From: Dictyostelium discoideum
Taxonomy: Eukaryota
Direction: 5' to 3'
Assembly: GCA_000004695.1 (NCBI GenBank)
Contig: CM000151.3
Coordinates: forward strand, 1,440,001 to 1,504,000
DNA length: 64,000 bases
Both the position numbers and the translations under genes were made by a program. Shown in pieces: positions 7,078 through 36,202 of the stretch; position 1 is the first letter of the stretch; every line of letters begins with the position of its first letter. The notes beneath the pieces are model-generated. The model worked only from the letters and a program-made list of their open reading frames with translations, ran no database searches and had not been told where the DNA came from.

Positions 7078-7082
<5 letters not shown>

Positions 7083-7170: not shown

Positions 7171-7175
<5 letters not shown>

Positions 7176-8192
7176 CATTATTGTTTAAAAAACCAATTTA
7201 ATTATTTTAAAAAATAAAAATAAAAAACTACATCCTTTTTTGTATTATTAATAAAAATTCAAATTCAATTGGACTAGAATTAACCAACCGGCGCTAAATC
7301 GAGTGGTGGTTGTGGAGGAAAAGGTGATCAAATAATCATGGTCGTGGTAATGGTCATGGCCACATAGCCAGGCGGTAAAGGTTCAGGAGGTTCAACAATT
7401 GTAGTTGTTAATATTTAATACTTTGAATATTACTACAATTGTAATAATAAATTATTTAAAATAAAAATCGCACCTATTAATTTTTTTTTTTTAAAAAATA
7501 ATAATCTTTTATTTTTATTTCTATTTATCTATTTATTAAATTTAAAAAGGTTACAATTTCATTGCACAATTAGTATCTTATTTATTCGTGAATTTAAAAA
7601 TTATATTTCTTAATTTATCCCTGAATTAAAAAATTATTAACCTCTGATTAAACTTGATCAATTCTTTTATCATCTGTACTCTAAAGATTTACTACAGGAG
7701 TTGAGCCTTGATAAATGTTATAATTATTATTATTATTTTTTTTTTTATTTTTATTTTTTTTTTTAATGCATGTGGGTATTAAAAAATTTATCAGGTAAAC
7801 ATCCCAATGAATTTATTACCTCTGGGAGATTTTGTTTGTGTATATTTTTTAATTTGTTTCTTCTTACTATGAGGAAAACAAATAATAAAAAAATACCAAT
7901 AAGAAACATAATTTGATAAAGACTAAAATTTAAATCGAAACCAATCATTTTAATATTAAAATCAAAAATTGGTTAAAAGTTAAAATAAAAAAAAAAAAAT
8001 TGATTTTTTTTTTTTCTCAAAAATCCCTCAAACAACAAAAAAAAAAAAAAAATAAAAAAAAAAATCTTTTTTTTTTTTTTAATTTTTCATTTTTTTTATC
8101 ACTTAAAAACGTTTCCTAATCCTTTAAATTAAATTCATAGTCGACCAATAGATCAAACAAAATATAAATTAGAAAAATAAACAAATAGAATA

Positions 8193-8436
8193 ATGTGTCA
8201 ACCAGTAGTAGCTACATTTAAGAAATCAACTGTACATGTAAGTACTTTAGATATAAATAAATATATATATATATACATATATGCATTGACACCAACCCCT
8301 TTGTTATTATTTTAAAAGATATATAGAGACTGTATTAGATTAGCAAGATATATAGGTGATATGGTAATTATCAATTAATATTTTTTTTTTTATTTTGTAA
8401 AAGCAACACATTTTATTGAAAAAAAAAAAAAAGTAA

Positions 8437-8479
<43 letters not shown>

Positions 8480-8892
8480 AAATGGTAAATGTTGCTTTTA
8501 CAAAATAAAGATAAAATGTACACAGATAAACAAAAATAATAATCATTTGGAAAAGCATATTAATATTGATTATTATTTTATTTTATTGTTTTTAAAAAAT
8601 AAAAAAAGAATGGGCATGCCAAAAATATGTCCAAACAAGTTCGTATAGTATTTAGAACAAATCAATTTGAAATTGATCCAAAGAAAATAGAAGAACAAAA
8701 AACAGAGTAAGTAATAAAAAAAAAAAAAAGGAAAAAAAAAAGGAAAACAAATTAACTAAACACTTTTTAAACAAAATAGTGCTGTCCGTTTTTTAACAAA
8801 TTTTATGCAACATGAAGCAGAAAGAATGGCAAGAAGTCAAAAGAAAGCAGCATCTGAATCAACCCAAACTCCAAGAACAAGATCAACTCTTG

Positions 8893-8897
<5 letters not shown>
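8193..8897 (+). CDS. Small hypothetical protein of about 86 aa in three exons: 8193..8237, 8609..8706 and 8780..8897
   Basis: ATG is at 8193 and the first donor GTAAGT is at 8238. The second exon follows acceptor AG at 8607-8608 and ends with donor GTAAGT at 8707 in phase 2. The third exon follows acceptor AG at 8778-8779. The product reads MCQPVVATFKKSTVH|NGHAKNMSKQVRIVFRTNQFEIDPKKIEEQKT|DAVRFLTNFMQHEAERMARSQKKAASESTQTPRTRSTLD* and stops immediately before a poly(A) tract. An alternative reading starts at the internal Met (MSKQVR...). I could not assign a family. Confidence 0.35.
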
Positions 8898-8930
<33 letters not shown>

Positions 8931-9218
8931 AAAATATATAAAACAAACTCTTGGTAGGGTTTAAAAAACAAAATAAAACCAAACAAAAAATATAAATATA
9001 ATTTATAAAATCTTAATTATTGTAACACTTTAGATCTTTTTTTTTTTTTTTTTTTTCTTTTAAAATTTTTTTTATTATTACTTTTTTTCTTTTTTTTTTT
9101 TTTGTTTTGTTTTTCTTTTTTTTTTTTTTTTTTTTTTTCTGGTTTAATTTAAATTGATTTATGTATATGAATTATTTTTTTTATTATTATTTAATATTAT
9201 TATTAATTTTACTATTTC

Positions 9219-9665
9219 TTATTTATTTTGTGGATTTGCAATAGCATTGAAGAATTTACCAGGTCTGTACATTCTAGAAAGTCTAATTAATTTTTCTTGA
9301 ATTGGGGTAGTTGTAACATTTAAATCTTTCAAAGTTAATGCACCAACAGTAGTGGTCATATCTTGATTATGATAATCGATTTGATCTTTAATGAAATTTG
9401 GATTACGAGCGAATCTTTCTAATAAATGTTCAGAGATGAATTTCATGAAATCATTTGAAACTGGAATATTTAATTTACTGTATTGAGCTGTACCATCAAT
9501 AATCATATCTAAAAATTCATCCCATGTAAATACTTCATCACCTGCAAATTCATAAACTTTACCACTTGTACCTGGTGTTTCCAAAATTGATAAAATACCA
9601 CTTGCTAAATCGTAACACTATTGTAAAAAAAAAAAAAATGATAATAAAAAAAAAGAGTATTAATA

Positions 9666-9740
<75 letters not shown>

Positions 9741-10573
9741 TTTTCATTACAATAATAATAATAATAAAAATGATATTTACATGAAGTGGTTGAATTTTAT
9801 GTTGTTGATTATATCTTGGAATGAATGGCCAATTTTGAGAGACTTTTGACCATTTGTTAATGAATTTATCTTCATCACCAAAGATGATTGATGGTCTAAC
9901 TACTGTACAATTTGGAATGATTTCTCTTGTTAATTTTTCACCGATTGCTTTTGAACGTGAAAAATGGGATGGAGAGTCTTCGGATGCTCTCAAGGTTGAT
10001 ACGTGAATGTATTTCTCAACATTTTTACTTAAATCAGCGATACGAGATGCTGCATGAACATTGATATCGTCGAGTGAGAAATTACGAGTTTCATAATCAC
10101 GACCAGCCATATTGATGACAATGTTTGAGTGTGAAATTGCTCTTTCAATTGATTCGCTATCTCTAATATCGAAACGAACTGGAATGATTTGACCTAATTC
10201 GCCCAACACCTTGAGATCACGAAAACCTTCATCTTCACATCTGTATGGTACAACTACTTGAATACCTGTACGTGCTAATAATTGTACTAAATATCTACCA
10301 GTGAATCCTGTTGCTCCAAATACTGTTGCTACTAATCCTGTTGTTTGTGTACGTGAACCATGATGAATTCTTGTTAATGGATTTTCATTAATTGTTGAAA
10401 ATGATCTCTAAATAATAATAATAATAATATTAAAAAAAAAGTTTTTTTTTTTTATTTTAATATTTTTATAATGAAAAGAAAAAAGTTTTATTATTTTTAT
10501 TATTAAGATAAGGTAATATATATTTTACCTTATTTATAAGAGATGGAAATCCTTTTGAAAGATTCTTTAACAT
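9219..10573 (-). CDS. ndufa9: NADH dehydrogenase (ubiquinone) 1 alpha subcomplex subunit 9 (complex I 39 kDa, NAD(P)-binding NmrA/SDR-like), 356 aa. Minus-strand exons: 10529..10573, 9781..10407 and 9219..9617.
   Basis: The product lines up collinearly with NDUFA9: GATGFTGRYLVQLLARTG...VVVPYRC...GELGQIIPVRFDIRD..SIERAISHSNIVINMAGRDYETRNF...VHAASRIADLS..NVEKYIHVS...SPSHFSRSKAIGEKLTREIIPNCTVVRPSIIFGDEDKFIN. Exon 1 (MLKNLSKGFPSLINK) ends at donor GTAAAAT. Intron 2, with donor GTAAAT and acceptor acaatag, contains an (ATT)n microsatellite at 9663-9740. The exon lengths are 45, 627 and 399 nt, all in frame. Confidence 0.85.
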
Positions 10574-11072
10574 TTTAAATATTTAAATAAATTTTGATTG
10601 TGAGCTCACAAAAAAAAAAAAAAAAATAATAAAAAAAAATAAAAAATAAATAAAAAAAAAAAAAATGAAAAATTGAAAAAAAAAAAATGAAAAAAAAAAG
10701 TGAAAAAAAAAAAAAAAAAAAAAAATGTATATTGACAAAAACATTCAAATCAGATATCCAATTTTTTTTTTTCCAAATTTTTTTTCATTTATTTCATTTT
10801 TTTTTTTTTTTTTTTTTTAATTTTTAATTTGGATTTGGTATAGATAAATAGAACACTCAAAAATACACAAAATGATATAAAATATATAAAAAACGAATGT
10901 AATTATAATAATAATAATAATTACATTCGTTTTTTTTTTTTTTTTTTTTTTCATCAAAAAATTTTTTTTTTAGTATTTAATTAAATTGTTTTATTTTTAT
11001 TTTTTTTAATAAATGATAGTATTGGTGGTAGTGGTAGTGAGGATTTTATTAATAGTATTGGCATCCATCCAT

Positions 11073-11103
<31 letters not shown>

Positions 11104-11584
11104 ACAATTCGACATAATCTTATATCTGGTAGTGAAAAGATAATGGTTCAATAGAATTTTTGAATCAATTAAAAGTAATCATTCCTTCCATGTTATCATT
11201 CATCTCACTTGGCAAGAAGAAGAGTTTTGATTGATGTTTCAATAAATGTTAGAAACAAAATCAAGAGTTTAATAAAAAAAGTTATAAATTTAGGATACAA
11301 ACCATTTTATTTATAAGGTTAAAAAAAAAAAAAAAAACCTTATAAATCCATCAAAGACAGAAAAAAATATTATTGTTTGTTTAAAATAAAATAAAATAAA
11401 TAAAAAAATAAAAAAATAAAAAAAATAAATAAAAAATCATATTAAGTCATAGTGTTTATATATCATATTTACCCATAAACCAAAAATGGAGTTATATTTT
11501 AATCAAAATTTTAATTTTTTATTTTTGAAAAAAAAATTTTCTGGTGCAAGCCAAAAAAACATGCACTGGTTGTGGTGGTGGTTA

Positions 11585-11619
<35 letters not shown>

Positions 11620-11629
11620 TTTTTTAATT

Positions 11630-11664
<35 letters not shown>

Positions 11665-11789
11665 CTGAACGATTTGTTCTACTGGTTTTTTTTTATTTTT
11701 TTTTTTTCATTTATATATATGTATAACTAATAATTATTATTACTACATTAAATTATCAATATTTTTGTATAAAATTAATTTGTAATAGT

Positions 11790-11831
<42 letters not shown>

Positions 11832-12058
11832 CGCCCTTTATATATATATATTACACAAAGTAAATTAAATTAAGATTTTAAGTCGATCTTATATTTTTAA
11901 ATAAAAAAAAAAAAAAAAATAAAAATAAATCAAAAAAAAAAAAAAAGAACATATATATATGTTTTTTTTTAAATAAAAAAAAAAATATATAAAAAAAAAA
12001 AGTAATCGAAGAAAAACAAAAAAAAAAGTAATCGAAGAAAACAACTACAACAAATAAA

Positions 12059-15000
12059 ATGACAACATCAACAATTGAAAATGGAGCATCATCACCAATT
12101 ATTGTATCATCATCAACACCAAAACTTTATCAAGAAGGAGCAGGAGTATGGATACCAGATCAAGAATTAGGATGGATTGGAGCAGATGTAATTGAACATT
12201 CAGAGACATCAGCAGATCAAGTATTAGTTAGAACAGAGGATGATAGAGAAGTGAAAATACCATTAAGTAAAGTGTTTCAAAAGAATCCAGATATATTGGA
12301 AGGTGTTGACGATTTATCATTTTTATCACATTTACACGAACCTGCAATCTTACATAACCTCCATCACCGTTATAATTTGAACCAAATCTATACATATATT
12401 GGAAAGATTTTAATCGCAATCAATCCATACACATCATTACCACTGTATGGAAAGGAGATGATCAGTGCCTACTATGGTAAACAATTGGGTACATTAGCAC
12501 CACACGTTTATGCCGTAGCTGAAGATGCTTTCAAAGATATGCGTTATGATGGTACAAGTCAATCAATTTTAGTATCTGGTGAATCGGGTGCTGGTAAAAC
12601 TGAAACTACAAAATTCTTATTACAATATTTTGCTGCGATGGGTAATATGATTAAAGAATCAACATCATCATCATCAATAAATGGAATTAATACATCATCT
12701 GACGGTATCCCAGTAACACCACCACCTTCACCAATGAAAAAATCACCTGTTGATAAATCGGTTGAAGAAAGAGTTTTAGAAAGTACACCATTATTAGAAG
12801 CATTTGGTAATGCTAAAACTTTAAGAAATGTAAAAAAAAAAAAAAACAAAAAACAAAAAACAAAAAACAATTATCATTTATCATTTTCTAACTTTTATTA
12901 TTATTATAAATATTATAGGATAATTCATCTCGTTTTGGTAAATTCATTGAAATTCATTTTAATGAAATGGGTTCAATTATTGGTGCAAAAATTTTAACAT
13001 ATTTATTAGAAAAATCAAGAATTGTAAGACAAGTTTATAATGAAAGAAATTATCATATATTTTATCAAGTAAGTAATAGTATTTATATATATATTATATA
13101 TATAAAATATAAAAATAAAATTATTAATTTTTTTTATTTTTTTTTTTTTTTTTTTATTTTTTTTATTTTTTTTTTTATTTAAAAAAGTTATTATCAGGTG
13201 CATCAGAAGAATTAAAAGAAAAATTAAATTTAAAAACAATTGAAGAATATAGTTATTTAAATAAGAGTGGATGTTTTGAAATTGAAGGTGTATCGGATGA
13301 AGAGCATTTTAATAAGACATGTCATGCAATGCAAGTTGCAGGTATAACATTGGTTGAACAAGAGAATGTATTTAGAATATTATCAGCGATTTTATTGATT
13401 GGTAATTTTGAATTTGAAAATATAGCCGGATCAAATGATGATAGTTGTCAATTGATTGATCGTGACCCATTGGAGAAAGTATCGGTATTGTTAGGATGTG
13501 CACAACCTGATGAATTGTTGAATTCAATGTTAACACGTAAAGTGGTGACGGGTAAAGAGTCGTACATATCACATAATACAAAAGAGCGTGCTGAGAATGC
13601 AAGAGATTCATTGTCAATGTTTTTATATGGTATGATGTTTGATTGGTTGGTTGTGAAAATCAATTCAAGTATGTCGATTTCAACACAACAAAAATCCAAA
13701 TCGTTCATTGGTGTATTGGATATCTATGGTTTTGAATCGTTTGAAGTGAACGGGTTCGAACAGTTTTGCATCAATTATGCCAATGAAAAGTTACAACAAT
13801 TATTTAATCAACACGTTTTCAAAGAGGAGCAACAGGAGTATATAAAGGAGAAGATCGATTGGTCATACATTGATTTCAATGATAATCAAGATACTTTGGA
13901 TTTAATTGAAAAGAAACCCATTTGTATATTGACCTTACTCGATGAGGAGACTATGTTCCCCAAGGCCACACCTCAGACATTGGCAACTAAACTTTACTCA
14001 AAAATGACAAGTCATAGTAAATTTGAAAAGCCACGTTTCTCATCGACTGCTTTCACAATCAATCATTATGCTGGTAAAGTAACCTATGAAACTGATCAAT
14101 TCCTTGACAAGAATAAGGATTTCATAATTCCTGAACAAATTTCAATTTTACAAAGATCAAATTTCTCATTCATTAAAGTGTTAATGTCACATTCTGATAA
14201 GTTCACTCAATCACCTGGTGGCCATCCACAAGGTAATGGTGGTCCAACTTCTTCCAATACAAAGGGTACTTCAGGTTCATCGTCAATGAAATTCCTTTCT
14301 GTTGGTTCACAATTTTCAACATCACTTGCAACTTTAATGAAAACTATTTCAACTACAACACCACATTACGTTCGTTGTATTAAACCAAATCCAGAGAAAT
14401 TACCTCAAACTTTTAATAAACAAGATGTAATTCATCAATTACGTTGTGGTGGTGTTATGGAATCTGTTAGAATTTGTTGTGCAGGTTTTCCAACTCGTAG
14501 ATTATTATCTGAATTTTATCAACGTTATAAAATTTTATATGTAAAAGATATTAATACTGGCAGTGGTGGTGGTAAGAAAGGTTCAAATAATAATAAAATT
14601 AAAGATCCAAAAATTTTAGTTCAAAATTTATTAACTGGTATTGAATTATCAGATGATAAATATAAGATTGGTTTAACAAAAGTATTTTTAAGAGCTGGCC
14701 AATTGGCAAGTTTAGAAGATATGAGATTGGAGCAATTGGATCGTAGTGCAACAGTTATTCAAAAGAGATGGAAAGGTTATTTATATCGTAAACGTTATAA
14801 ACAACTTAGAGATGCATCATTGATAATTCAAACTAAACTTAGATCAGTACATGCAAAACAACAATTATCAGCATTACAACGTACTCATTCAGCCATTTTA
14901 ATACAAAAAGTTTGGAGAGCTCATAGGGATAGAGTTCAATATCAAAAGATTAGAGATGCTTCATTACAATTGCAAACTGTAATGAGAAGACATTTATTCT

Positions 15001-18000
15001 CTGAGCAAGTTCATAGGGAAAGATGTGAGAATGCAGCAATCATCCTACAAACAAAGATTAGACAAATCCTATCAAAGAGAGAAGTTGATAAAAAGTTACG
15101 TGGTATCATTTTAATTCAAGCAAGATGGAGAATGAAATTGGCCAAAAGGGTTTACATACAATTAAGAGCCGAAGCAAGATCATTGCGTACCGTTCAAGAG
15201 CAAAAGAATAAACTTCAAGAGAAACTTGAGGAATTGCAATGGCGTTTAACCTCTGAAGCAAAACGTAAACAACAATTGGAGGATCAAAAAGTTAAATCTG
15301 ATACAACCATTAGTGAGCTTTCAAGTAATAATGATCATCTCGAATTACAATTATCAGAGATTCAATTGAAATATCAAGAATTGGATAAATCAAATCAAAG
15401 CAGTCAATTACAATTATCTGAATGTTTATCAAAACTAGAGGAACAAACTCAACAATTAGATCATTCAAGTAAATTAAATAAAAAACTTGAGAAAGATTTA
15501 TCTGATCAACATGATTCCATCGAGAAATTACAATCACAATTTAATGAAACTGAACAACAATTACAACAATTTAAACAACAATCTGAGGAATTATCAAGTA
15601 AATTATCAAAAACCACTCAACAATTGGATTTCAATAAACAAGAATTTGATAGATTATCTCAAGAGAGAGATACTGATAATACAAATAATCAATTAGAGAT
15701 TCAACAATTAAAGAAAGCAAATTCAACTCTAGAAGAGGATTACTTTAGTTTATCAGGTATTAGAGATAATTTAGAGAGACAAGTATTGGAATTACGTGAT
15801 GAAAATCAATTAATAAAGGAGAGATTAGATTCATTGGGTCAACAATCCTCTCAGTTCCAAAGTGGTGCAGCATTAGAGAAACAACAATTGGAACAATTGG
15901 TTCAAGAACAATCTGAACAATTAATTAAACTTTCCTCAGAGAAATTGGGTAGTGAGGAGGAGGCAAAGAAACAAATCAATCAATTAGAACTTGAACTTAC
16001 TGATCATAAATCTAAATTACAAATTCAATTACAATTGACTGAACAATCCAATGAAAAGATAAAGAAACTCAAAGGTAAATTAGAGGAATATCAAGATGAA
16101 AAGAAACAATTACAACAAGAGCTCGAAAGAATTAAACAATCAAAACAATCGGTTGAAGATGAAAAGAATTCATTAATCACTCAATTAACAACGGTCAAAT
16201 TTGAAAGTACTCAAGTTTCAACCAATGTATCTCATCAAAAAGAAAAGATCACCACATTGAAATCTACAATCGAAGAATTGAATAAATCGATTGGCAAATT
16301 ACAAGCTGAACAAAAGAATAAAGATGACGAGATACGTAAGATTCAATTTGAATTAAATGATCAAAAACAACAATTCACTAGACAAACCAAAGAGTTTTCT
16401 GATCTTCAATCACAACAATCAATCGATAGACAAAAATCAGAGATTACAATTCATTCATTAGAGAGAACCAATGAAACTTTGAAATCCGATTTCGAACGTG
16501 TTCAACAATCATTGAAACAACAAGAGAGAGATTGTCAACAATATAAAGACACAATCAATAGATTAGAGAATGAGGTTAAACAATTGACTCAATTGAAAGA
16601 ACGTTTCGAAAATGAATTCTTTGTTGCAAAGGAACAAAATTCAAATCAAACTCAAGAATCTGTTTATCTAAAAGAGGTTACCACTCAAATGCAACAAAAT
16701 CAATCACGTATCGAAAGAGAATTAGAGGAAAAGAAACAACATATCACTAGAATCGACGATGAACGTGATGAACTCAAGAAACAATTGACTCAACTTCAAC
16801 AACAACATGAACAATCTTCAACTCAATTGCTATTGGCTCAAAATGAATTGGAACGTCTTAGAAAGAAAGAACTAAAATATAAAGAACGTGGTCATGAAAC
16901 TTCCAAACAACAAGATCAATTCAATATGGAGATTCAATCATTACGTATCACCAATAATGATCAATTGAAATCTTTACAAGATTATGAACAAGAGAAAAAG
17001 AAACTCAAAGATAAACTTTCATCCTCTAAACAAGAGGCTCAACAACAACGTGAATCAATCATTAAAATGGATGCTGAATTATCTGCAATTAAACAACATT
17101 CGCAATGGGTTGAAAATTCTTTCACCGATATGAAACAAAGAAATCAAGAACTCATTGAATCAAGTGCACTCTATAAACAACAATTGTTACAACAAACTTC
17201 AACAATCGATTCAACCATCAAAGAGAAAGAGAATGAAATTTCAAAATTACAACAACAACTTGAAACTTCAAATCAACAATTACACCAATTGAAAGAGGAA
17301 TTAAATTCAATGAAACAATCCAATCAATTAGAATCCACCGAACAATCTAAACAATTGAATCAACTCATTCAAGAGAATCAACAATTGAAATCGGTCACCA
17401 ATGAAATCTCTAAACAATTGGATGATGCTGTCTTTGAGAATCAAAAGATTAACAATACAATCAAAGAACAAGAGATCAAATCAAAGAGAATGTCTGTCGA
17501 ATTACAACAACATATCGATGAAGGTAAACAACAAGAGATTCAACAATTACAATCTACAATAGCTCAATTGAAACAACAACAACAATCTGAAACTGATCGT
17601 CTAGAAAAAGAAATTCAACAAATGAAACGTGAAAGAGAAACTCAAATGAAATTGGTAGAGTCTACAAAATTAAATTATCACATGTTGGAGGATCGTATGG
17701 AACTCTATAGAAATGTTATGGAGATCATTGATTACAAAGAAACTGAATGGGAGAAATTGGCAAGATTGGCCGGTTGTAAAGAATTGGATACAAAATTACT
17801 CTCTGATTTCCTTTTATCTTGTAAATTAGAACATACTAGTTTAGGTAGTCAAATGTGGTTCCATCAAATAGATTATTGGTGTCCTTATGAAAGAGACTCA
17901 AGTAAAGGTATCTTTTATGGTATCATTAGATCAATAGTTGATTTCACAATTAAAAACTTTGATGATGTTGATCTTCTCTCCTATTTATTGGCTTGCTGTT

Positions 18001-19004
18001 CTCTTACACTTTTCCTTTATAAAAAGAATTTAGTTAAACATTTAAATGGTGCAAATTCAATTATGCCAATCATACCAACATTGGGAGATTTAGAAGAATT
18101 AAATGAAAGATTATCACATCAATCATTAACAACTAGTGGTAAATTCTCTGGTGGTGGTGGTGGTGGTGGTATTGATTTCATTGATCAATTACAACAAAGT
18201 ACTGGTATAACTTTTGGTTTAATATTTAAAGCTACAACTCTTAAATTATCACCATTGGTTGATGGTGCAATTTTAAATGAAAATTATAATAAGAAATTAA
18301 CATCAATCTCTGCTTCTTCATTTGGTAGTGGTAGTTTTGGTCTTGGTTCTAATGGTGTTGGTAGTGTATTATCAATTGAATTGATTACAACTTATCTCTC
18401 TTCAATCATTACAATATTCCAACATCGTATGGTACATTTTACATTATCACAAAGATTCTTTAATCAAGTATTTTGTTGGATTGGTGCTTTAATAATGAAA
18501 GGTTTCATGTTGAGACAAACTTTTTGTACAGAAACATTTGCTACCTTTGTTAAAACAAAGATTGACTTTTTAACTAGATGGGCCGATGATATTGGTAATG
18601 TTTGGGTTGGTGATGTCGCTAATGCTTTCCAACAAGTTAGAGAGGTCATCAATGTTTTAAATATTAAAGATAAAGAAAAGATCATCGATGATAAAATACG
18701 TAAACAATATTGTCCAACTTTAAATTCAAATCAATTGAAACAAGTCTTATCTTTATTCTCTCCTGGTGAGTTTGGTGGTAAACGTGTCTCTGCTAAAGTT
18801 ATCGCCTCCATTTGTCCACCAAATAAATCCTCTGCTGGTCAATCCTTTGTTCAAGATGAAAACAAATTAAATACAATTCCAATTGATTCTTTACATTATT
18901 TAGAAATTCAAGATATTAAAACACTTTCTTTACCACTCTCTATAAGACAAACAATTGAAACTGAAATCATTAATTTAAAACAACAAATTGCTTGTAAAAA
19001 ATAA
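12059..19004 (+). CDS. myoJ: Class V-type unconventional myosin heavy chain, 2245 aa. It has a motor domain, six IQ motifs, a roughly 1000-aa coiled coil and a C-terminal DIL (dilute) cargo-binding domain. Exons: 12059..12829, 12919..13068 and 13188..19004.
   Basis: Motor-domain motifs are GESGAGKTE and [12 protein letters not shown]|[14 protein letters not shown]...NYHIFYQ|LLSGASEE. The two tiny introns have donors GTAAAAA at 12830 and GTAAGT at 13069, and acceptors tag at 12916-18 and cag at 13185-87. IQ motifs ([14 protein letters not shown]..., [14 protein letters not shown]... and others) fall near nt 14750-15180. A long Q/E/K-rich heptad region follows, then a DIL-like tail (...[42 protein letters not shown]...). 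The exon sum is 257+50+1938 = 2245 aa, which is the length I recall for Dictyostelium MyoJ (Myo5B). The symbol is assigned from memory of that length and domain order, not from a search. Confidence 0.8.
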
Positions 19005-19248
19005 TAATAAAAAAAATAAAAAATAAAATTTTATAAAAATTTAAAATTATTAATTTGTAAAAATAAAAAGCTTTGTAATAATTATAACTATAATAAAATT
19101 TTATTTGGTTTCTTTTTTTTTTTTGATTGGATTTCTTGTAAATTTGGTAATATTTGGTAATTTGAAGTTCATATTAAGGAATTATAATTTTGAAATATAG
19201 TGTTGTTATTTTTACAATCATTACTACTTTTTTTTTTTTTTTTTTTTA

Positions 19249-19990
19249 AAAAAGACATCCTGTTTTTAAATAATTTAGTATTTAAAATTAAATAAATCAA
19301 ATAATAAAATTATAAGAGTATTTGATTAGATGAATTGGTCGAAGGAGCTAAGATTCGGAAGCACCGATTTTTGGAATATAATATACTTTTCCAGCTAATT
19401 TTCCTTAATTAATTTAAGGAAATTGTTTGGGTCTTTAAATTTGTATGAAAGTTTAAATTTTTTTTTTTTTTTTTTTTTCATTAATATTTATTAATCACAG
19501 TTTATCCATCCATAATTAATGGTTTTATCTATTTATTTTAATTTTAGAAAGTAAAGAAGATACTCCTTTTATTCATTTGATTTTTTTTTTTTAGGATTGA
19601 TGAGATCAATTTTCTATAAAAAAAAAAATCAGTTGCTTAGATTGATTGATCGAATGAGACAGGATTCGGGAGCACTGATTCAGGAATACAATATACTTTG
19701 CAAGTTAGTTTCCTTTAATAAAATCATTTAGGTCATTAAAATTTCTCTGATCTCTTTAAATCTTTTGCTTTTTATTATTTAATTCTTGAGTAGTTTATAG
19801 CATTTATTAAATTAGGTCGTTGTAATTCTAATGTTCCCTTACATTAAAGAAAAAATGACCATGTGGGTCTAGATTTTCTTTATGGTGGAGAAGTTCAATG
19901 GTGAACTTCTTGCATGATTTTTTTTTTTTAACTTAATATTAAAAATAAGGATTAACCAAGTAAGATAAAGAAAAGCACTTCCCAATTTAA
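19249..19990. repeat. Series of oligo(T)-tailed modules, oligo(A) on the minus strand, including two diverged copies of a roughly 90-bp core (about 19322-19410 and 19640-19730)
   Basis: Copy A reads gattagatgaattggtcgaaggagctaagattcggaagcaccgatttttggaatataatatacttttccagctaattttcctt. Copy B reads gcttagattgattgatcgaatgagacaggattcgggagcactgattcaggaatacaatatactttgcaagttagtttccttt. They are about 75% identical. T-runs sit at 19229-19247, 19441-19466, 19581-19590 and 19911-19921. The modules lie just 3' (minus sense) of the TRE-like element. Confidence 0.5.
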
Positions 19991-20128
19991 TCAACATTTT
20001 TTTTTTTTTTTTTTTTTTGATATAAATAAACTATTGTAGTATACGATTAGTATGTTATTTTTATTTATTTATTTTAGGTTTTTTAGTTTTTGTGAATTTA
20101 AAATGGTATGTTATTTTAGATTAGGTAA

Positions 20129-23100
20129 TTAATAATTAATTGGTGGTGTAATTGTTGGAATTGGTTCATTTGTGTTTATGCTCCATTCTTTTTTAAATTT
20201 TTTGATTGTTTCGGACCATTGGGTTTCTTTTTGAGTTTTTGTGAGGTTGTTTTTAATTGAGTATTGGTTGAAGTTTGATAATGTTCTTGAATATTCCAAT
20301 CTTATTAGCTTGTGCCATTTTGATTTTAATATATCATAATCTAGTGTTGTGTTGTTTATTTGATTGTTCCGATTATCAAATGATTGAGTTATATTGATGT
20401 CAAATAATGATTTGCATAACCATATCCATATTTGGTGAATAACTAATGAGATTATGTTCCAATATGCATGTGTTCTGACTAGATCAAGATTTGTGTTTAT
20501 ATAATTCCAGTTGAACCTGTATTTTTTATATTGTGCGTTTTCTGCAAAATGAAAATTAATATTGATAGTTGGATCTGGTTTAAATGCTTTGTTGTTTGTT
20601 TGTGGTTTATAAATGAGTGTGTATAATTTTGTTGTTTGGTTTTTTGTTAGTGACCAGTTTTTGTTTCTATTGCAATTTTTATATAAAAAATATTTTAATT
20701 TGTCGTGGTTTATGAAGTTGATTGTGTGCTGACAATTGAAAAACAAATGACCATAGGGATCATTATTCATTTCATTGTTGCAAATGGGGCAAACTTTGTT
20801 GTGTAGATGATTAATTGGAAGACATCTAGCATGGAATCTTTGCATTGTATCACGGCCTTTTGGATCTTTTAATTTTTGAATTTTGACAAATAGTTGGTCG
20901 TATGTGTATTTCCATAATAGTTGTATTGATTGTTGGTGCGAAGTAAGAAGTAGATCTGAATATTTCTTGCCAACATAGTCTTTTGATTTGCATTGGTGAT
21001 TGTTGAGTATTGTCGAGTAGAATTCTTTGAGTGTTGGTGGTAGTGAAATATTATTTGTGGTTAATGTTAGAGAGGTTTGGTTTTTTATTAATATTGGTTG
21101 TAGGATTTGAACTTTATCTTTTAGATGTCCAATTTGAGTTGCATAGTTTTCCCATTTTTTTGATTTTTATAAGGTATGGAGAAGAGATTGATTTGTTGAT
21201 GATTTGATCCATCCAACTTATCATGTATATTGAATTGTTTGCAGATTTATGCATTTGTAAAAATCTGTTGTATATCCAAATCTTTTGAGCAACTTGTCGT
21301 AATTGTATATTCCACATACCCCAACCACCTTCTTTTAATGGTTTTAATGATCTATCATAACACATCAAAGGTATTTTTGCACGGAATGGATGGTTGATGT
21401 GTTGTTTTTAATGGAATTGGTATTAGAGTTGGTGATTCAGAATTTGCGGGAGAATTCATAAACCATGAGATTAATTTATTAATTTGAATTTCTTCATCTT
21501 TTGTAAATTCTTCAAGGTATGATAAATATGTTATTGGTGATAGTGAGTAGGTGTTTATGATGGTTGTTTTTGTTTTTAATGTTGTGCCACTAGTTTTCCA
21601 TAGTACTAATGATTTAATCAGTGTTTTCATTGTTTCTGGTAATTTCCTATGTAAACCCCCTATGATTAAAGAAATAGCCAAGGACTCTTTCTGATTGATC
21701 TTTTTTGGTTATTGGGATTCTTTTTGATTGTGGAATGTTGTTTATTATGTGTTTATCAGTGATTTTGTGGGGGTTGATTTCTATTATTGCACTTTTGTCA
21801 AAATTTAATGATGATGATGTTGAAGCGCAGAAATTATCGAAATGTTTGATTGATTGTTGTTGTTGTTCGTAGTTGATGTTGTATGTTGTAGAGTCGTCTG
21901 CAAATTGGGTAAATTTGATTTTAATTTGTGGATTGGGTGAAATTGGTAATCCAATTATTGAATTGTCTGCATTTATTGTTCTTGCTAATATTTCAATTAC
22001 AATTACAAATAAAGTGGCTGAGATTGGGTCACCTTGTTTTACACCTCTTTTAATATCGAATTTTCTGGTCGTTTTACCATTAATTGAAATTTTTGCTTGT
22101 GAGTCAGATAATAGCTTGTGGATTAAATTTATTAATTTTATTGGTATACCAATATGAATTAATGTTCTTTTAATGCTATCGTGAGAGATAGAATCAAATG
22201 CTTTAAAGAAGTCAAATAGTGTGATGATACCAGGGAGGTTTTTAGATTTGAGGTAGTTGATTAATTCATTGATGTTGATGATGTTGTCTATGATGAATCT
22301 GTGGGGTACGAAACCAGTTTGGTTGTTATTGATGATGAAAGGAAGTATTCTCAGAAGACGTGCATTGATTACTTTGAGAGGGATCTTGTAATCAGTGTTT
22401 AGAAGTGTAATGGGACGACGATTTGATATGAGTAAGGGGTTGCCTTTCTGGTATATTGTGTGTATAAGACCTTCGGTGAATTCTGTTGTGATGTGGTGTG
22501 GATTTTCTAGTATATCGTTGAATAATGTAGTGAGAATTGGTTTAACTTGGTTTAAATGATTAATGTAAAATGCATTTGTAACTCCATCTGGACCGGGTGA
22601 TTTGTTGGGGTTACTGGTTTTAATTGCAGCTTCAACTTCATCTTTTATAAAAGGTGAGTCTAAACCATTCCAATATTCATTTTTTATGATGGGCCATGTG
22701 TTTAGCATGAGCTAGTGAGTAATTGGACAACATATTTGTAAGCTATATAGATTTGTGTAGAATTCAACAAAAGCATTTTCAATTTGGTCGGGGTCGGATG
22801 TAATGATGTTTCCATATTGGATTGATTCAATTTTTGCATCTTTTGATCTTTTGTTTAGTATTGCTGATAGATACTTGCTAGGTATTTCTCCATTTATATG
22901 TTTTTTTAATATGTTTGTGTGGTTTTGATGTAATTTGTTTTTGTTACATATAATATTGTATTCAGTGATGCATTGTTCTTCAAGATGTTTGAATTTTGCT
23001 GCTTTTTCTAATAGTATTTGTTTTGCACGTTGAGTTTGTTTGTCTTTGTTATATTGATAGTTTTTTAGAGTTTTAATAATTTTTGATTTTACTTTTGACC

Positions 23101-23953
23101 AATTTGTAAATTGATTGTTGATGTGTTATTGTGATTAGTTATTAAATGATTGATAATATTGATTGCTTCATGGTCATTTGCAGTACCAGGTGATAATATC
23201 CATCTTTTCTTATGTTTATTTATTTGAAAAGGTGAAGAAATTGTTGTTGATATTGGATTATGATCTGATAATGAAGATGGAATTTGGTGGACTTGTGTAT
23301 ATATATTTTCAGGGTCTATTCTATTGTATTGAGTATATATTCTATCTAATCTGTTACCATGTGTATGAGTTGGAGTGGTTTTTAAATTCACCTTGATCAA
23401 TTAGATGGTGTTGGTATGTGTAGGATTGGATAATATCATCTAATAGTGAATTGTCGTTGTGGATACAGTTGAAATCTCCTGCGATAATAGATACATGTTG
23501 GGATTGGTTTGGTATTGGGTTTGTTGAGTGGTTGTGGAGAAGTGTTTGTAGTGAAGTTGCATATGAATTCTTTTTGATGGTATTATTTGATGCTGGTGCG
23601 TAAATTCCAAGAATACCAATTGGTAATTGATTTGGAAATATAACGTCTGCTAAAATAGCTCTACCATCAATTGTTGATATGTGTTTGAGTTTGAGTGTGT
23701 TTGGGTTATGGTTAATGATGATTACACCATTTCCTCGTTTGGTGACAGAGATGATGTGATCGGGAAAATCATGTTTAAGTTGTAATGGTGATGAATTGAG
23801 TTCAGTGAGTATTGAAATTGTTGGACGCGGTGTAAGTTTTGATATAAGTAGTTGTAGTGTGTCAACAGGTTTTTGGTAGGAATTGTGGTGATTGTTGGGG
23901 TTTTCAGTGAATCCTCTACAATTCCATGTTATAAAGTTGATTTTTGAGCTCAT
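20129..23953 (-). pseudogene. TRE-like ORF2 with endonuclease, reverse transcriptase and a C-terminal Cys-rich domain, broken by multiple frameshifts
   Basis: The six-frame pieces are 23354..23953, 23089..23400, 21647..22708, 21355..21681, 21114..21368 and 20129..20845, all on the minus strand. They are collinear but fall in different frames. Confidence 0.7.
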
Positions 23954-25156
23954 ACCTTACTAGGTTTGGAAGCACCAGTATTGACTGGTTGTGTAGTCAG
24001 GGCATTGCTGCTTCTTCTTGGATTTATTGGATTTGGAGTTGGTGCACTTGGTTTGTTTGGTTGAGATTGTAGAGGTTTTTGTGGTACAATTGTTGGATCG
24101 GTTGGATTGCTCATTGATAATGAGTTTTTCCCGTTATTATTATTTGAAGAATCACTTTTGTGTGAAATTTCATTATTGTTTTGGGATTGATTGTTAATAT
24201 CAAGTGATTCATTTAGTATAGCTTTTGAACCACTATTTTGAAGTGAGTTATTATTGCGATTGGAATTTGCAATTTCGTTGATTGGTGGGGTGTTAATGTT
24301 GTTTTTTGGTGGTTGATTGTTTTTGTTCATGTTTGGGTTTGTGATGGCATTTTTTATAGTTGTTGCCATATCTGCATTTTTTGCATGTTGAATTTTGTGT
24401 TTAGTGACACTACGTGTTGCAGCTTTGATATATCTTGTGATACCAGATGGTTGTTCGATCTTTTGATCAACAATGTTGTGTGTGTGATCAATTAGATGAT
24501 ATGTTATAATGTAACTTTTAAACGCAACAGCATATGAGTATGTGACAGTAAATGATTCAATTGATGTACAACTGGTGAATTTAGTGAGGTTGTTTGTAAT
24601 TGCCTCGTTTGCATGTTTGGGTGAGTACGTTTTAATGAATGTTTTAATGATTGCATAATCATTTGATGATATATCGAATCTATAGTTGAGTTTGTCGATA
24701 TTTAGTGCAAGTTGGTTTTGAAGGTTGATTATTGAAGTTAATTTATCAACGTTGCAATTTACGAAGGCAGTTGCACCAATTATTTTAAATGCTGATGGCG
24801 ACAGTATATCTTCGAAGAGTTTGTGAATGTTTTTGTGAATTTGTTGGATTCTTGTGTCATCTTTAGAGGTTAATTCTTCACGGATGTGTGGTTGATTAAA
24901 GTAACACTTAATGTTGATGGTGTTATTGTTTTTTTCTAAGAAAGAGAGTGGTCTTGTGATTGATGGAGGTGCAATGATATCTAATTGATTATCAAGTCCT
25001 TTGTTTAGTGAGAGTTGGTTTGTTGGGGTTTGTTTTTTAGGTGTGTCGATTTTTGCACTTTTGTTTTTTGTTGTTGAGGTTGTGGAGGTATTATTTGTAG
25101 GTTGTGTTGTTATCTGTATGATTTAACTGTAATTCAGTTGAGTGATCATCAGCCAT
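23950..25156 (-). pseudogene. TRE-like ORF1 with one apparent frameshift near the N-terminus
   Basis: The minus strand reads ATGGCTGATGATCAC... (MADDHSTELQLNHTDNNTTYK*). From the +1 frame a continuous frame follows: ...NNTSTTSTTKNKSAKIDTPKK...HAKNADMATTIKNAITNP...ASKPSKV, ending at 23950. Confidence 0.55.
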
Positions 25157-25311
25157 TGTTGAAAAGTATATAGGACGATAGCCCTTGCTTTATTGAGCAA
25201 AAAAAGGGTAAAATTAAGAGGAATGAATGTGGCGGTGAAGATATAACAGTGATTTATTTATTATATGTATAAATTCTCGTTTATTTCTTTGTTTTTTCGG
25301 TATCAACATAT

Positions 25312-25322
25312 AGAATCGAACC
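25312..25322 (-). promoter_or_regulatory. External B box (exB, GGTTCGATTCT) about 29 bp downstream of tRNA-Phe
   Basis: The minus-strand sequence GGTTCGATTCT matches the B-box consensus GGTTCGANTCC. Dictyostelium tRNA genes often carry a second, external B box downstream (established knowledge). Confidence 0.6.
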
Positions 25323-25350
25323 GGCGATCATACCAACAATTAAAAAAATT

Positions 25351-25424
25351 TGCCTCAGGCCGGGATCGAACCAGCGACCTTAAGATCTTCAGTCTCACGC
25401 TCGTACCAACTGAGCTACTAAGGC
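25351..25424 (-). tRNA. tRNA-Phe, anticodon GAA
   Basis: The minus-strand sequence GCCTTAGTAGCTCAGTTGGTACGAGCGTGAGACTGAAGATCTTAAGGTCGCTGGTTCGATCCCGGCCTGAGGCA folds as a cloverleaf with a 7-bp acceptor stem, the D-loop AGTTGGTA, the anticodon loop CTGAAGA and the T-loop TTCGATC. It is 74 nt with discriminator A, is followed by a T-rich Pol III terminator, and has no encoded CCA. Confidence 0.9.
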
Positions 25425-25480
25425 TTTTATGAAATTTCTGTTTTTTATAGCAGTATAAATATTATAAAACGGAAAAAAAA

Positions 25481-25810
25481 CAAATCTCTTTTTTTGATTA
25501 TTTCATTTTTCATATAAAAAAGACTTAAAAAACAAATAAATAAATAAATAAACTATCTTAAAAAGCCATCTTTTTACTTTATTGTAATTTATTATTTGTT
25601 TCGTTTTGAGAATTTTGCGTAGCAAAATTTTCAAAAAAAAGCAAAAAATAATCAGATCGAAAAAAAACAAACAACAACAACAATCTCTTTTTTTGATTAT
25701 TTCATTTTTCATATAAAAAAGACTTAAAAAACAAATAAATAAATAAATAAACTATCTTGGACAAAAAAGATGTTTTAATCAAAAGTAATAATACAATTCA
25801 AAATTCGAAA

Positions 25811-25851
<41 letters not shown>

Positions 25852-26150
25852 TAAACCAACCCCTCTTTTAGAGACCCTGTAAAAAAAAAAAAATAAAATA
25901 AAATAAAATGAGATCTAGCATCTCAAGGAGAAGCAAATAATAATTGCGTTATCCAATTCAAAAAAAAAAAAAAAATATTATAAAACTCTTAGACCATGTA
26001 AAAAAAACTAAAAATAAAATGAGATCTAACATCTCAAGGAGAAGCAACTAATAATTGCGTTATCCAATTCAAAAAAAAAAAAAAATATTATAAAATATTT
26101 TCAAAGAGAAGCAACTAATAAATGCGTTATCCAATTCAAAAAAAAAATAT
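25481..26150. repeat. Repeat cluster immediately 5' of tRNA-Phe. It holds a 77-bp direct repeat at 25481-25557 and 25681-25757, plus about 2.5 tandem copies of a roughly 120-bp unit at about 25870-26150.
   Basis: The 77-bp repeat is caaatctctttttttgattatttcatttttcatataaaaaagacttaaaaaacaaataaataaataaataaactatctt, present twice about 200 bp apart. The tandem unit reads ...gaccatgtaaaaaa..aaaatgagatctaRcatctcaaggagaagcaaMtaataattgcgttatccaattcaaaaaaaaa..atattataaaa... The first copy starts about 57 bp upstream of the tRNA 5' end. Confidence 0.6.
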
Positions 26151-27055
26151 TGACAATCAAAAATGTCGAATTTTCCCTTTTGATGGTTTTCTGTAGATAA
26201 TAACCCAAAAATGGTCATTACTTTTATTGAAGCTATAGTCGTTCGTTACAATAATAAAAATTAGTATTATTTTAATTATTCACTTTTAGCAGATTATGTC
26301 AACTCATTTAATAAAATATAAAATGTAAATTAAAATATTATTATCAGTTTTTTTTTTTGGATTTTACTATTTAATAATAAATAAATCTTATTTGTTTTTT
26401 CAATTCTATGTATATTCAATCAATTTAATTTAATTATAAAATATAAAGAGAATTGAAAAATTAAATAATTTAAGATTAAATAGATCACTTTTGTTAAATT
26501 TACTTTTGTTCCATTTGCTTTACTTTTATTTTCTTTTTTTTACATAGACTACTTTTGTAACACAGTTATAAATTATGTATCGAAAGAATTCTTTGTAATG
26601 AAAGTAAATGTATCTAAATTAAATGTAACAAAGTATATGTAACGAAAGTGTTCTATTGTAATCCAATCGAAAGTAATAATTATTCTTTCTTTACTTCTTT
26701 TATTGATAGTGTAGAGTTATAGATATTAAAAAAAAAAAAAAAACAAAGTTGCATTAGAATACACAAAATGCATTAATGAAATATTCCAAGAAAAAAAAAA
26801 AAATATTCCTGAAATAAAAAAACGGCAAGTTTGAAAAAGGATAAGGAAATTTTCTTTTTTTTTTTGTTCTAAAGTACACTTTTTTATTTTTTTTTTTATT
26901 TTTTTTTTTAATTATCAGATTGATAAATTATAAATTTTGTAAATTTGATTTGAACTATAATGAATAAATTATTGTGAAGAAAAAAAAAAAGGGAAATAAA
27001 AATGGAAAAAAAAAAAAGTATAAAAAAAAAAATTTTGAAAAAAACTCTTTTTCTT

Positions 27056-35386: not shown

Positions 35387-36202
35387 TTAAGATAAAAATG
35401 ATGGGATGCAATAATAACGTGGACAACCATTTGGTTTTGACGCATATGATTTTAAAGTGTATCCACCAGAACAACCTGGAACAACCAATGGACAAATTCC
35501 TCTATGTACACAACCACTGAATGATAAACAACGAGTTGCAGCGATAGTATAGGTTGGAATTGTACCATTGGCACATCTAACAGCAATTAATTCCTTTGGA
35601 CATAATTTTGGATCAGGTAAACTAATAAACATATAATCTATGGAGACGGTTTTATTTGAATCTATTCTTCCACTAACTGTGAACACAGATTCACCAGTGG
35701 TAACCTTATATTCCAACCAATCCATTGGAACAAACGATACATCTTGTGAGTAACTATTTTCAATTGAGTTTAGTTTCTCTGATTTGTTACTATTTAATTT
35801 CTTAATTTCAATATTTGAATTGGTTTCTTTTGAATCTACAATATAGAAATTATTCAATTCAGAATCGAAATTGAATGGTTTATCTGGCTTTGGTAATAGT
35901 CTAAAGATTTTTGATACTATAATCTCATCTTTTTTAATATCACCTTTTACAACTACCGTATATGATGGTGCAAATTTATATAGTGATTCATCAACTGTTG
36001 ATCCTCCACCCTTCACTGTTTGATTTAATGACTTAACATAAACTTCTGATTTATTTGAACCAACTTCACGAACGAAATAACCACCGCACATAGGATATGC
36101 ACATTTTCTTAAATCAGTTCTAATTGCCCAATATGATTCACTTGCATTTGCAACTAACGAAATTGTTGCAAAAAATACTATTAAACTTAAAATTATCTTC
36201 AT
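35387..36202 (-). CDS. Secreted hypothetical protein, 271 aa, with a signal peptide and a Cys-rich C-terminus
   Basis: MKIILSLIVFFATISLVANA is a signal peptide. The C-terminal segment CPKELIAVRCANG...CLSFSGCVHRGICPLVVPGCSGGYTLKSYASKPNGCPRYYCIP carries 10 Cys. Confidence 0.5.
   Translation of the reverse strand: MKIILSLIVFFATISLVANASESYWAIRTDLRKCAYPMCGGYFVREVGSNKSEVYVKSLNQTVKGGGSTVDESLYKFAPSYTVVVKGDIKKDEIIVSKIFRLLPKPDKPFNFDSELNNFYIVDSKETNSNIEIKKLNSNKSEKLNSIENSYSQDVSFVPMDWLEYKVTTGESVFTVSGRIDSNKTVSIDYMFISLPDPKLCPKELIAVRCANGTIPTYTIAATRCLSFSGCVHRGICPLVVPGCSGGYTLKSYASKPNGCPRYYCIPSFLS

Follow-up and report, generated by a model that had tools for sequence, protein, structure and literature searches.

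A defective TRE3-B retrotransposon 3' of a Dictyostelium discoideum tRNA-Phe gene, probably a collapsed tandem as written

A long, disrupted retrotransposon lies beside a tRNA-Phe gene in the 64,000-nt stretch of D. discoideum DNA analysed here (the window). The locus raises two questions: to which family the element belongs, and whether the one copy written in the sequence records one insertion. Our reading, which we hold at a probability of about 0.8, is that the region contains a defective TRE3-B element 49 bp 3' of tRNA-Phe(GAA), and that as written it is probably a collapsed tandem.

A non-LTR element behind tRNA-Phe(GAA)

The tRNA gene and its accessory elements are as follows.

25351..25424, minus strand: tRNA-Phe(GAA) gene (ARAGORN; Rfam RF00005, 62.5 bits)
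25372-25362, minus strand: internal B box of tRNA-Phe(GAA), GGTTCGATCCC (motif position)
25342..25348, minus strand: T7 run, the Pol III terminator, directly 3' of the tRNA gene (sequence read)
25312..25322, minus strand: external B box (exB), GGTTCGATTCT (motif position; exB concept from PMC5911963)

The complete minus-strand tRNA-Phe of a preliminary description was confirmed by both ARAGORN and the Rfam tRNA model. The B-box-like sequence placed there about 29 bp further 3' was also found, 28 nt past the tRNA end and 10 nt ahead of the element. B-box-like 11-mers (two mismatches or fewer) occurred in 0.9% of random 100-nt windows, and the exB motif also lies 28-33 nt past 4 other tRNAs examined. 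The tRNA gene and exB are both intact, with the insertion point beyond the T7 terminator. The 5' end of the element, previously put near 25290, maps to 25301, which is 49 bp past tRNA-Phe, 10 bp past exB and 71 bp past the start of the internal B box; element and tRNA share strand and orientation. TRE5-like repeats occupy the other side of the same tRNA (25474-26153), and the neighbour of the region is myoJ.

19997..25301, minus strand: full-length TRE3-B non-LTR retrotransposon (5,305 bp including the tail, 5,283 bp excluding it)
25157..25301, minus strand: 5'UTR, 145 nt, beginning ACCGAAAAAACAAAGAAATAAACGAG as sibling copies do
23950..25156, minus strand: ORF1, 402 aa when repaired; a 2-bp deletion (between 25100 and 25099) disrupts it
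20129..23953, minus strand: ORF2, 1,275 aa when repaired, -1 frame with respect to ORF1
23260..23932, minus strand: apurinic/apyrimidinic endonuclease (APE; Exo_endo_phos), repaired ORF2 aa 8-231 (Pfam E 8e-12; raw ORF E 1.6e-8)
21758..22429, minus strand: reverse transcriptase (RT; RVT_1), repaired ORF2 aa 509-732 (Pfam E 3.6e-28)
21904-21893, minus strand: RT FADD box
20732..20791, minus strand: CCHC zinc-knuckle (HC) motif CPICNNEMNNDPYGHLFFNC, CPIC-X10-H-X4-C (translation)
20019..20128, minus strand: 3'UTR, 110 nt
19997..20018, minus strand: poly(A) tail, A22

The overall build is that of a non-LTR element: short UTRs enclose two ORFs, the tail is oligo(A), and terminal repeats are absent. 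The start codon of ORF2 and the TGA of ORF1 overlap in the sequence ATGA (23953-23950), which puts ORF2 in the -1 frame; a -1 frameshift requirement for ORF2 has been stated for TRE3-A (PMC5911963). Pfam and translation place the ORF2 domains in the order APE, RT and CCHC motif. The retrotransposon recognized earlier, with ORF1, an APE-bearing ORF2 and an RT FADD box, is real. Two details needed correction: the tail is A22 and not A28, and the element ends at 19997 and not at 19991, the extra bases being part of a flanking direct repeat. At the CCHC region the element is 96.8% identical to GenBank AAC27746.1 ('similar to HC domain of Tdd-3 and DRE'), and phmmer aligned repaired ORF2 aa 172-746 with human L1 ORF2p (PDB 8sxt/8uw3; E 4e-40). 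The repaired ORF1 protein had no match in Pfam.

Family, subfamily and targeting

The TRE3 identity first proposed for the element is supported, and can be sharpened to subfamily TRE3-B, a non-LTR retrotransposon of the L1 clade. The subfamily call draws on element length and on a single dictyBase label cited in a paper. D. discoideum proteins match the RT and C-terminal ORFs at 92-97% identity. DDB_G0291686 matches ORF2 aa 832-1068 at 96.2% identity over 237 aa and shares a 90% cluster with the best RT match; it is listed as 'TRE3-B ORF2' (PMC12405889, Table 2). Without its tail the element measures 5,283 bp (5,288 bp after indel repair), close to the TRE3-B consensus of 5,279 bp and not to the 5,229 bp of TRE3-A (PMC5006619, Table 1).

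A second, clearly different TRE3 subfamily is present at 52695-53995 of the window and in the genome (ORF2 about 41% aa identity). Assignment of our element to TRE3-A (Tdd-3) or to some other TRE3 subfamily is very unlikely. TRE3-A is the most abundant TRE3 (PMC5006619 Table 1), and AAC27746.1 is named only for its similarity to the HC domain of Tdd-3 and DRE; against this stand the 96% identity to a protein that dictyBase calls TRE3-B ORF2, the length, and the presence in the same window and genome of a clearly different subfamily with 41% aa identity.

The position of the element agrees with what is published for the family: insertion distances are 40-150 bp 3' of the tRNA for TRE3 (PMC5911963) and 34-188 bp for TRE3-B (PMC5006619 Table 1), and 49 bp on the tRNA's own strand falls within both ranges. 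Seven further copies or fragments of the element, oriented like the adjacent tRNA and with target duplications of 9-14 bp, lie 40-80 bp 3' of tRNA-Thr, Val (two), Gly, Phe and Asp. The TRE3-type geometry of the preliminary description is borne out at these sibling loci too, so targeting of the tRNA 3' side characterizes the family as a whole and is not peculiar to this locus. A TRE5 element, or a non-TRE LINE that landed near a tRNA by chance, would share with ours nothing but the generic APE-RT build common to all L1-clade elements. TRE5 integrates on the upstream side of the tRNA, about 50 bp away and oppositely oriented, all sibling copies examined are downstream of a tRNA, and the most similar proteins are fragments of TRE3 type from Dictyostelium. 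This candidate is refuted by the element's position and orientation and by the sibling loci.

At the orthologous locus of the sister species D. cf. discoideum, the tRNA-Phe is identical and the region is about 5.7 kb shorter, without the element. Insertion would have proceeded by target-primed reverse transcription, with the ORF2 endonuclease nicking the target and the RT copying the polyadenylated RNA from the nick; ORF2 is homologous to LINE-1 ORF2p and the sibling copies have poly(A) tails and target duplications, all of which point to this route. Site choice may operate through Pol III factors at the B boxes, as the literature suggests.

One written copy and two tandem copies

The earlier view that the element is a dead copy with at least six frame changes across ORF1 and ORF2 held up on comparison with sibling copies, which revealed seven frameshifting indels and one nonsense codon besides the native -1 ORF1/ORF2 overlap.

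Between 25100 and 25099, minus strand: 2-bp deletion in ORF1
23377..23378, minus strand: +1 C in ORF2, private to the window
23117..23118, minus strand: -1 T in ORF2, common only with tandem copy U (below)
22712..22714, minus strand: TAG stop (CAG in other copies), common only with tandem copy D (below)
21656..21660, minus strand: +1 within GGGGG (other copies read ATGG), private to the window
21424..21425, minus strand: -1 C, common only with copy D
21383..21384, minus strand: -1 A, private to the window
21155..21161, minus strand: -2 (AG), common only with copy D

Eight minimal edits restore the 402-aa ORF1 and the 1,275-aa ORF2. Neither frame is uninterrupted, as both would be in an autonomous (active) element, and the copy is therefore unable to encode its own proteins. 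Four of the lesions are absent from every other copy compared and may have arisen as errors in sequencing.

In an independent assembly (GCA_054883475.1; locus L007), made from an essentially identical strain, this site has a different structure. It carries two tandem TRE3-B copies, tRNA-proximal U and tRNA-distal D, arranged as U-A17-TCTATATGTTGATTAAA-D, and its flanks show 0 substitutions in 7.6 kb against the window. TREs are known to strike the same tRNA sequentially and to form tandems (PMC5006619 Table S2 note).

The window copy resembles D in one part and U in another. It is 100% identical to D over 19000-21382, and then identity falls abruptly at 21383 to about 98.5%, with 54 differing positions over 21383-25099. 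Alleles private to D are carried at 22 of 25 positions in 22811-19997 and at 0 of 20 in 25253-22991. Over 23376-22910 the window is identical to U and carries U's private -1 T; across the 5' half, where both are known, it differs from U at 9 positions in about 970 bp. The window copy also has 4 private indels and clusters of private substitutions.

The flanking repeats bear on the same question.

25302..25309, minus strand: upstream copy of the direct repeat ATGTTGAT
25314-25302, minus strand: TCTATATGTTGAT, the 13-bp target duplication inferred for the tRNA-proximal copy, containing the upstream ATGTTGAT
19990..19997, minus strand: downstream copy of ATGTTGAT, its first A common with the poly(A) tail
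19997-19986, minus strand: ATGTTGATTAAA, the 12-bp duplication of the tRNA-distal copy, containing the downstream ATGTTGAT

The 8-bp repeat around the window element is shorter than the target duplication of every sibling copy examined, and equals the overlap of the 13-bp and 12-bp duplications implied by the tandem. The 13-bp value for U is taken from the junction in the window, since the L007 sequence stops within U and leaves that copy's 5' junction outside.

Taken at face value, and as the preliminary description implies, the window would hold one TRE3 insertion of full length, flanked by an 8-bp target duplication, in which all eight lesions arose in place. The sequence is consistent within itself, its 5' end is full length like those of the siblings, ATGTTGAT is present at both ends, and eight lesions suffice to account for all frame breaks. 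We nevertheless consider this history decidedly unlikely: between identical flanks the independent assembly shows two copies whose duplications are different and longer, lesions private to U and others private to D occur in the window, identity to D drops sharply at 21383, and the 8-bp repeat falls under the 9-14 bp of the siblings while matching the overlap of the tandem duplications.

We favour instead, with somewhat better than even confidence, the view that the window copy is a collapsed representation of two sequential tandem insertions. The older, 5'-truncated copy D would have inserted first, producing duplication ATGTTGATTAAA, and the near full-length copy U later, 4 bp closer to the tRNA, producing TCTATATGTTGAT. 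A collapsed composite is the most likely origin because private lesions of both tandem copies are present in one sequence, and no fewer than half of the lesions trace to one or the other of two distinct neighbouring copies. A plain collapse of two copies is insufficient, and a full account also needs genuine gene conversion, errors in sequencing or reads that came from other copies. If the window copy is composite, the 5' junction of U in GCA_054883475.1 is expected to read TCTATATGTTGAT followed directly by ACCGAAAAAAC.

The tandem pair might also have given rise in vivo to a real single copy, through unequal recombination or through ectopic gene conversion among U, D and other TRE3-B elements. 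Tandem repeats that are 98% identical are good recombination substrates and would suit such an event, and a U-type 5' junction together with a D-type 3' junction and D-type 3' 2.9 kb matches the expected product of a U x D deletion. One crossover fails to account for the pattern, as U and D alleles alternate down to 4 bp (23657/23653) and switch about 5 times within 22355-21827. The 5' part has 9 differences from U in 970 bp, yet the unique flanks have no substitutions, so that many conversion events would be needed within negligible divergence time. An in vivo origin is thus unlikely, and it is similarly doubtful that two near-isogenic D. discoideum lines differ by a tandem-to-single TRE3-B rearrangement with multiple gene-conversion tracts. 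Were the mosaic single copy real, tRNA-associated TRE3 tandems would be hot spots at which laboratory lineages underwent recombination or conversion very recently.

Meaning and comparison with known systems

The TRE3-B element and its tRNA targeting are already known, and the biological weight of the locus is small: it is a textbook case of the TRE3 safe-haven strategy in a genome where 61% of tRNA genes carry a TRE (PMC5006619). Its wider meaning concerns assembly, as repeat copies in this kind of assembly can be composites. Under the collapsed-tandem reading, half of the counted 'decay' lesions belong to two different physical copies and the apparent 8-bp target duplication is misleading. 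A check against long-read assemblies is therefore advised when such a reference is used to date TRE insertions, count intact copies or infer the lengths of target-site duplications.

There is no difference in kind between the window element and TRE3-B (formerly RED) of D. discoideum. Both have two ORFs, an APE-RT-Zn knuckle ORF2 and an oligo(A) tail, with 96% protein identity, 5,283 versus 5,279 bp, and a distance of 49 bp that lies inside the 34-188 bp range; the window copy has 7 frameshifts and 1 stop and, as written, resembles a mosaic drawn from two copies in tandem. TRE3-A (Tdd-3) and the subfamily at 52695-53995 share the architecture and the downstream-of-tRNA targeting, but differ in consensus length (5,229 bp for TRE3-A) or in ORF2, only about 41% identical in the second subfamily. 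TRE5-A (DRE) is likewise a non-LTR member of the TRE family with an APE-RT-ZF ORF2, a -1 ORF1/ORF2 arrangement and tRNA-gene targeting, whereas it inserts about 50 bp upstream in the opposite orientation and has modular UTRs (A, B and C modules). Human LINE-1 ORF2p has an APE and RT core homologous to that of our ORF2, but LINE-1 lacks tRNA-gene targeting and its ORF1 protein is unrelated to that of TRE3-B. The Dictyostelium LTR element Skipper-2 and yeast Ty3 use Pol III genes as safe havens, as TRE3 does, and Skipper-2 also inserts 3' of tRNA genes, while Ty3, unlike TRE3, targets the Pol III transcription start site. Because both are LTR retrotransposons that use an integrase, their likeness to TRE3 is convergent and not by descent.

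The element behind tRNA-Phe and its probable subfamily

The tRNA-Phe(GAA) gene is followed, in the same orientation, by an external B box (exB) and by a defective non-LTR retrotransposon, 5,305 bp long with its tail and 5,283 bp without it.

Features of the locus (window coordinates)
13329-19004, plus strand: 1,891-aa ORF, corresponding to the large 3' exon of the myosin-J heavy chain gene myoJ (DDB_G0272112, AX4 chromosome 2), adjoining the element's locus
25351-25424, minus strand: tRNA-Phe(GAA) (ARAGORN; Rfam 62.5 bits)
25348-25342, minus strand: T7 run, separated by AA from the tRNA (read from the sequence)
25322-25312, minus strand: exB GGTTCGATTCT, B-box-like, 28 nt beyond the tRNA end
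25301, minus strand: 5' end of the element, starting ACCGAAAAAACAAAGAAATAAACGAG, an end common to other copies; 5'UTR of 145 nt
25156, minus strand: ORF1 start
23953, minus strand: ORF2 ATG, overlapping the ORF1 TGA as ATGA, -1 frame
ORF2 aa 8-231: APE endonuclease (Exo_endo_phos; Pfam)
ORF2 aa 509-732: reverse transcriptase (RVT_1; Pfam)
21904-21893, minus strand: FADD box
20791-20732, minus strand: CCHC knuckle, CPIC-X10-H-X4-C
20129, minus strand: ORF2 stop; 3'UTR of 110 nt
20018-19997, minus strand: poly(A) tail, A22, at the 3' end

ORF2 matched human LINE-1 ORF2p (E 4e-40). A Pfam search of ORF1 gave no match, in agreement with the literature, in which TRE ORF1 proteins resemble nothing else.

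The neighbouring myoJ assigns the window to the D. discoideum genome. The element's ORFs share 92-97% identity with proteins of D. discoideum. DDB_G0291686, which falls in the same 90% cluster as the best RT match and whose dictyBase product is 'TRE3-B ORF2' (PMC12405889 Table 2), shows 96.2% identity with ORF2 as repaired. The length of 5,283 bp compares with consensus lengths of 5,279 bp for TRE3-B and 5,229 bp for TRE3-A (PMC5006619 Table 1). GenBank AAC27746.1, annotated as 'similar to HC domain of Tdd-3 and DRE', shares 96.8% identity with the element, and a second TRE3 subfamily elsewhere in the window is only ~41% identical. On these four grounds, the element very probably belongs to TRE3-B. 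The preliminary description had recognized a TRE3-type element, and that reading holds once it is amended in its subfamily, its tail (A22, where A28 had been claimed), its ends (25301 and 19997) and its probably composite nature.

The element begins 10 bp past exB and 71 bp past the point where the internal B box starts. Because the insertion lies beyond the T7 terminator, the tRNA-Phe gene is untouched. The G+C content of the window is 22.8%. Among random 100-nt windows of the sequences studied, only 0.9% contain a B-box-like 11-mer (<=2 mismatches). The motif also recurs 28-33 nt past the tRNA-Ile of the window and past tRNA-Phe and tRNA-Leu at related loci. This rarity and recurrence together argue that exB is no chance match. 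Elsewhere in the window, two 271-aa ORFs (35387-36202 and 39556-40371) proved unrelated.

One locus in three assemblies

At the same locus in D. cf. discoideum (L006), an identical tRNA-Phe lies between myoJ and the next gene and is followed by a diverged exB. The interval from myoJ to the next gene holds no element and is ~5.7 kb shorter, and the window sequences flanking the element align to one continuous stretch. L006 is thus an empty site, and the TRE3-B copy is an insertion.

A second D. discoideum assembly (locus L007) shows no substitutions relative to the window in 7.6 kb of unique flanks; the differences are mostly homopolymer lengths. Across window positions 2000-19000, almost the sole difference is that the window's T or A runs exceed those of L007 by 1-10 nt. 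This homopolymer pattern suggests that near-identical strains were sequenced with different technologies.

The L007 segment equivalent to window 19997-25301 (positions 17950-26946 of L007, which comes from GCA_054883475.1, JBTAPE010000001.1) carries two tandem TRE3-B copies where the window has one: copy U, proximal to the tRNA, within which L007 ends, and the distal copy D. In element orientation the order is ...copy U-A17-TCTATATGTTGAT-TAAA-CTGTTATATCTTCACC/AATACAAAT...copy D...A22-TGTTGATTAAATTGGG. A 5' truncation and an internal deletion mark copy D, which bears the 12-bp ATGTTGATTAAA on both flanks. The TCTATATGTTGAT after the tail of U is exactly the sequence ahead of the window 5' end (GGTTCGAT-TCTATATGTTGAT-ACCG), and this match gives U a putative 13-bp duplication. 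The 8-bp repeat seen in the window, ATGTTGAT, is the exact overlap of the 13-bp (U) and 12-bp (D) duplications. Another locus, L005, was rejected as an ortholog: there too a tRNA-Phe(GAA) is followed by TRE3-B, but the spacer, exB and flanks differ.

Lesions and the origin of the window copy

Lesions were located by ungapped tblastn and by nucleotide alignment to sibling copies, since gapped tblastn blurred the frame changes. Ungapped tblastn traced an ORF2 frame path of 1-2-1-2-1-3-1.

Lesions of the window copy (minus strand) and where else they occur
25100/25099: ORF1, -2 bp; private to the window
23378/7: ORF2, +1 C; private to the window
23118/7: ORF2, -1 T; elsewhere only in copy U
22714-22712: ORF2, TAG for CAG; elsewhere only in copy D
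21660-21656: ORF2, +1; private to the window
21425/4: ORF2, -1 C; elsewhere only in copy D
21384/3: ORF2, -1 A; private to the window
~21157: ORF2, -2 bp; elsewhere only in copy D

Reversing these eight changes left both ORFs open throughout, with lengths of 402 aa and 1,275 aa. The earlier count of at least six frame changes is borne out by seven frameshifting indels, besides a single stop codon and the -1 overlap native to the element. Every reading considered leaves the locus with a dead copy or dead copies.

We then scored alleles that, of the copies compared, only one carried. D-private alleles were present in the window at 22 of 25 positions in 22811-19997 and at none of 20 in 25253-22991. 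The window also carried 3 of 24 U-private alleles, the -1 T frameshift among them, and 7 of 18 L005-private alleles, each of them within 25298-24000, a stretch outside the known part of U. That the window copy is a true single decayed insertion is unlikely, because one physical copy should not bear post-insertion lesions that are private to each of two neighbours. Substitutions private to the window also form clusters, with eight, for example, in 24021-23816.

Over 19000-21382 the window and D are identical (100%); from there to 25099 they differ at 54 positions. Differences from U, 79 in all, occur throughout. Maximal identical runs of ~400-500 bp alternate between copies.

Window runs identical to another copy
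24513-24022 and 23815-23439: L005 copy
23376-22910: copy U
22878-22451 and 21657-19997: copy D

A real recombinant or gene-converted copy, in which this alternation would exist in the genome, is an unlikely source of the pattern. A single crossover between U and D was rejected: alleles of U type and D type alternate, in places only 4 bp from each other, and the 5' half falls short of full identity with U. The simplest reading, to which we give a probability of about 0.6, is that a tandem was collapsed during assembly of the window's genome. Under such a collapse the unique flanks would have fixed the outer ends in place, and the interior would have been assembled from reads of more than one copy. 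The 5' end of U would then be ACCGAAAAAAC, preceded by TCTATATGTTGAT and by exB GGTTCGATTCT, with tRNA-Phe 49 bp away.

Placement of TRE copies at tRNA genes

The tRNA-Ile of the window also has a TRE3 copy behind it.

The tRNA-Ile locus (window coordinates)
52518-52590, plus strand: tRNA-Ile(AAT)
52624-52634, plus strand: its own exB, GGTTCAATTCC
52671-52694, plus strand: A24 run after the exB
to 53995, plus strand: ~1.3-kb 5'-truncated copy of a different TRE3 subfamily (A, C or D), with A29 at its end (53967-53995)

This copy has 41% amino acid identity to TRE3-B, 99.4% nucleotide identity to a copy downstream of tRNA-Leu at locus L003, and 99.6% amino acid identity to protein P0139. On the other side of tRNA-Phe, repeats at 25474-26153 (plus strand) start exactly 50 bp upstream of the gene and are directed away from it. 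A segment of 86 nt occurs twice at 199-bp spacing (25474-25559 and 25673-25758), followed by A38 (25812-25849) and then by three 70-110 bp units, each ending in an A run. Homologues lie upstream of tRNAs in L001-L005 in the same relative orientation (in L005, for example, 44 bp before tRNA-Phe). The repeats look like stacked TRE5-type fragments, and tRNA-Phe would thus have TREs on both sides.

Sibling TRE3-B copies were taken from GCA_054883475.1, and the comparison DNA was reached via proteins of that assembly and of GCA_054859205.1.

Sibling copies and their tRNA genes
L001: 63 bp past tRNA-Thr
L002: 40 bp past tRNA-Val(TAC), followed by a second stacked copy
L002: 65 bp past tRNA-Val(AAC)
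L004: ~80 bp past tRNA-Gly
L005: ~60 bp past another tRNA-Phe(GAA)
L005: 210-bp 3' fragment past tRNA-Asp

All are in tRNA orientation, with target duplications of 9-14 bp where both ends are readable. The L001 insertion sits between the tRNA and its exB, and the duplications CGATCCTCTTCTAA (L004, 6139-6225) and TCTAATTGGTAA (L005, 7793-7860) overlap or abut exB; insertions thus need not lie distal to exB. The L004 and L005 copies carry variable extra A-rich or repeated 5' nucleotides ahead of the canonical CCGAAAC start. The larger L001 copy contains several deletions and an inverted internal segment of 349 bp (7680-8028). Directly behind it, ahead of exB GGTTCGACTCC, lies a miniature TRE3-B (10215-10290) whose first ~16 nt (CCGAAACAAAGAAATA) are joined to the last ~14 nt (GTTTATTTTATATC) and poly(A).

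The features observed for TRE3-B are an L1-type APE-RT ORF2, a poly(A) tail, duplications at the sibling copies, an orthologous site that is empty, and a placement and orientation that stay constant with respect to tRNA genes. Integration would proceed by target-primed reverse transcription, with the target probably chosen through Pol III factors (TFIIIC) at B boxes; in the literature, experimental study of the targeting mechanism is confined to TRE5-A. Both the element and its niche are already known. Published TRE3 insertions lie 40-150 bp downstream from tRNA genes, in their orientation and past an internal or external B box (PMC5911963), and the placement of the sibling copies matches this behaviour.
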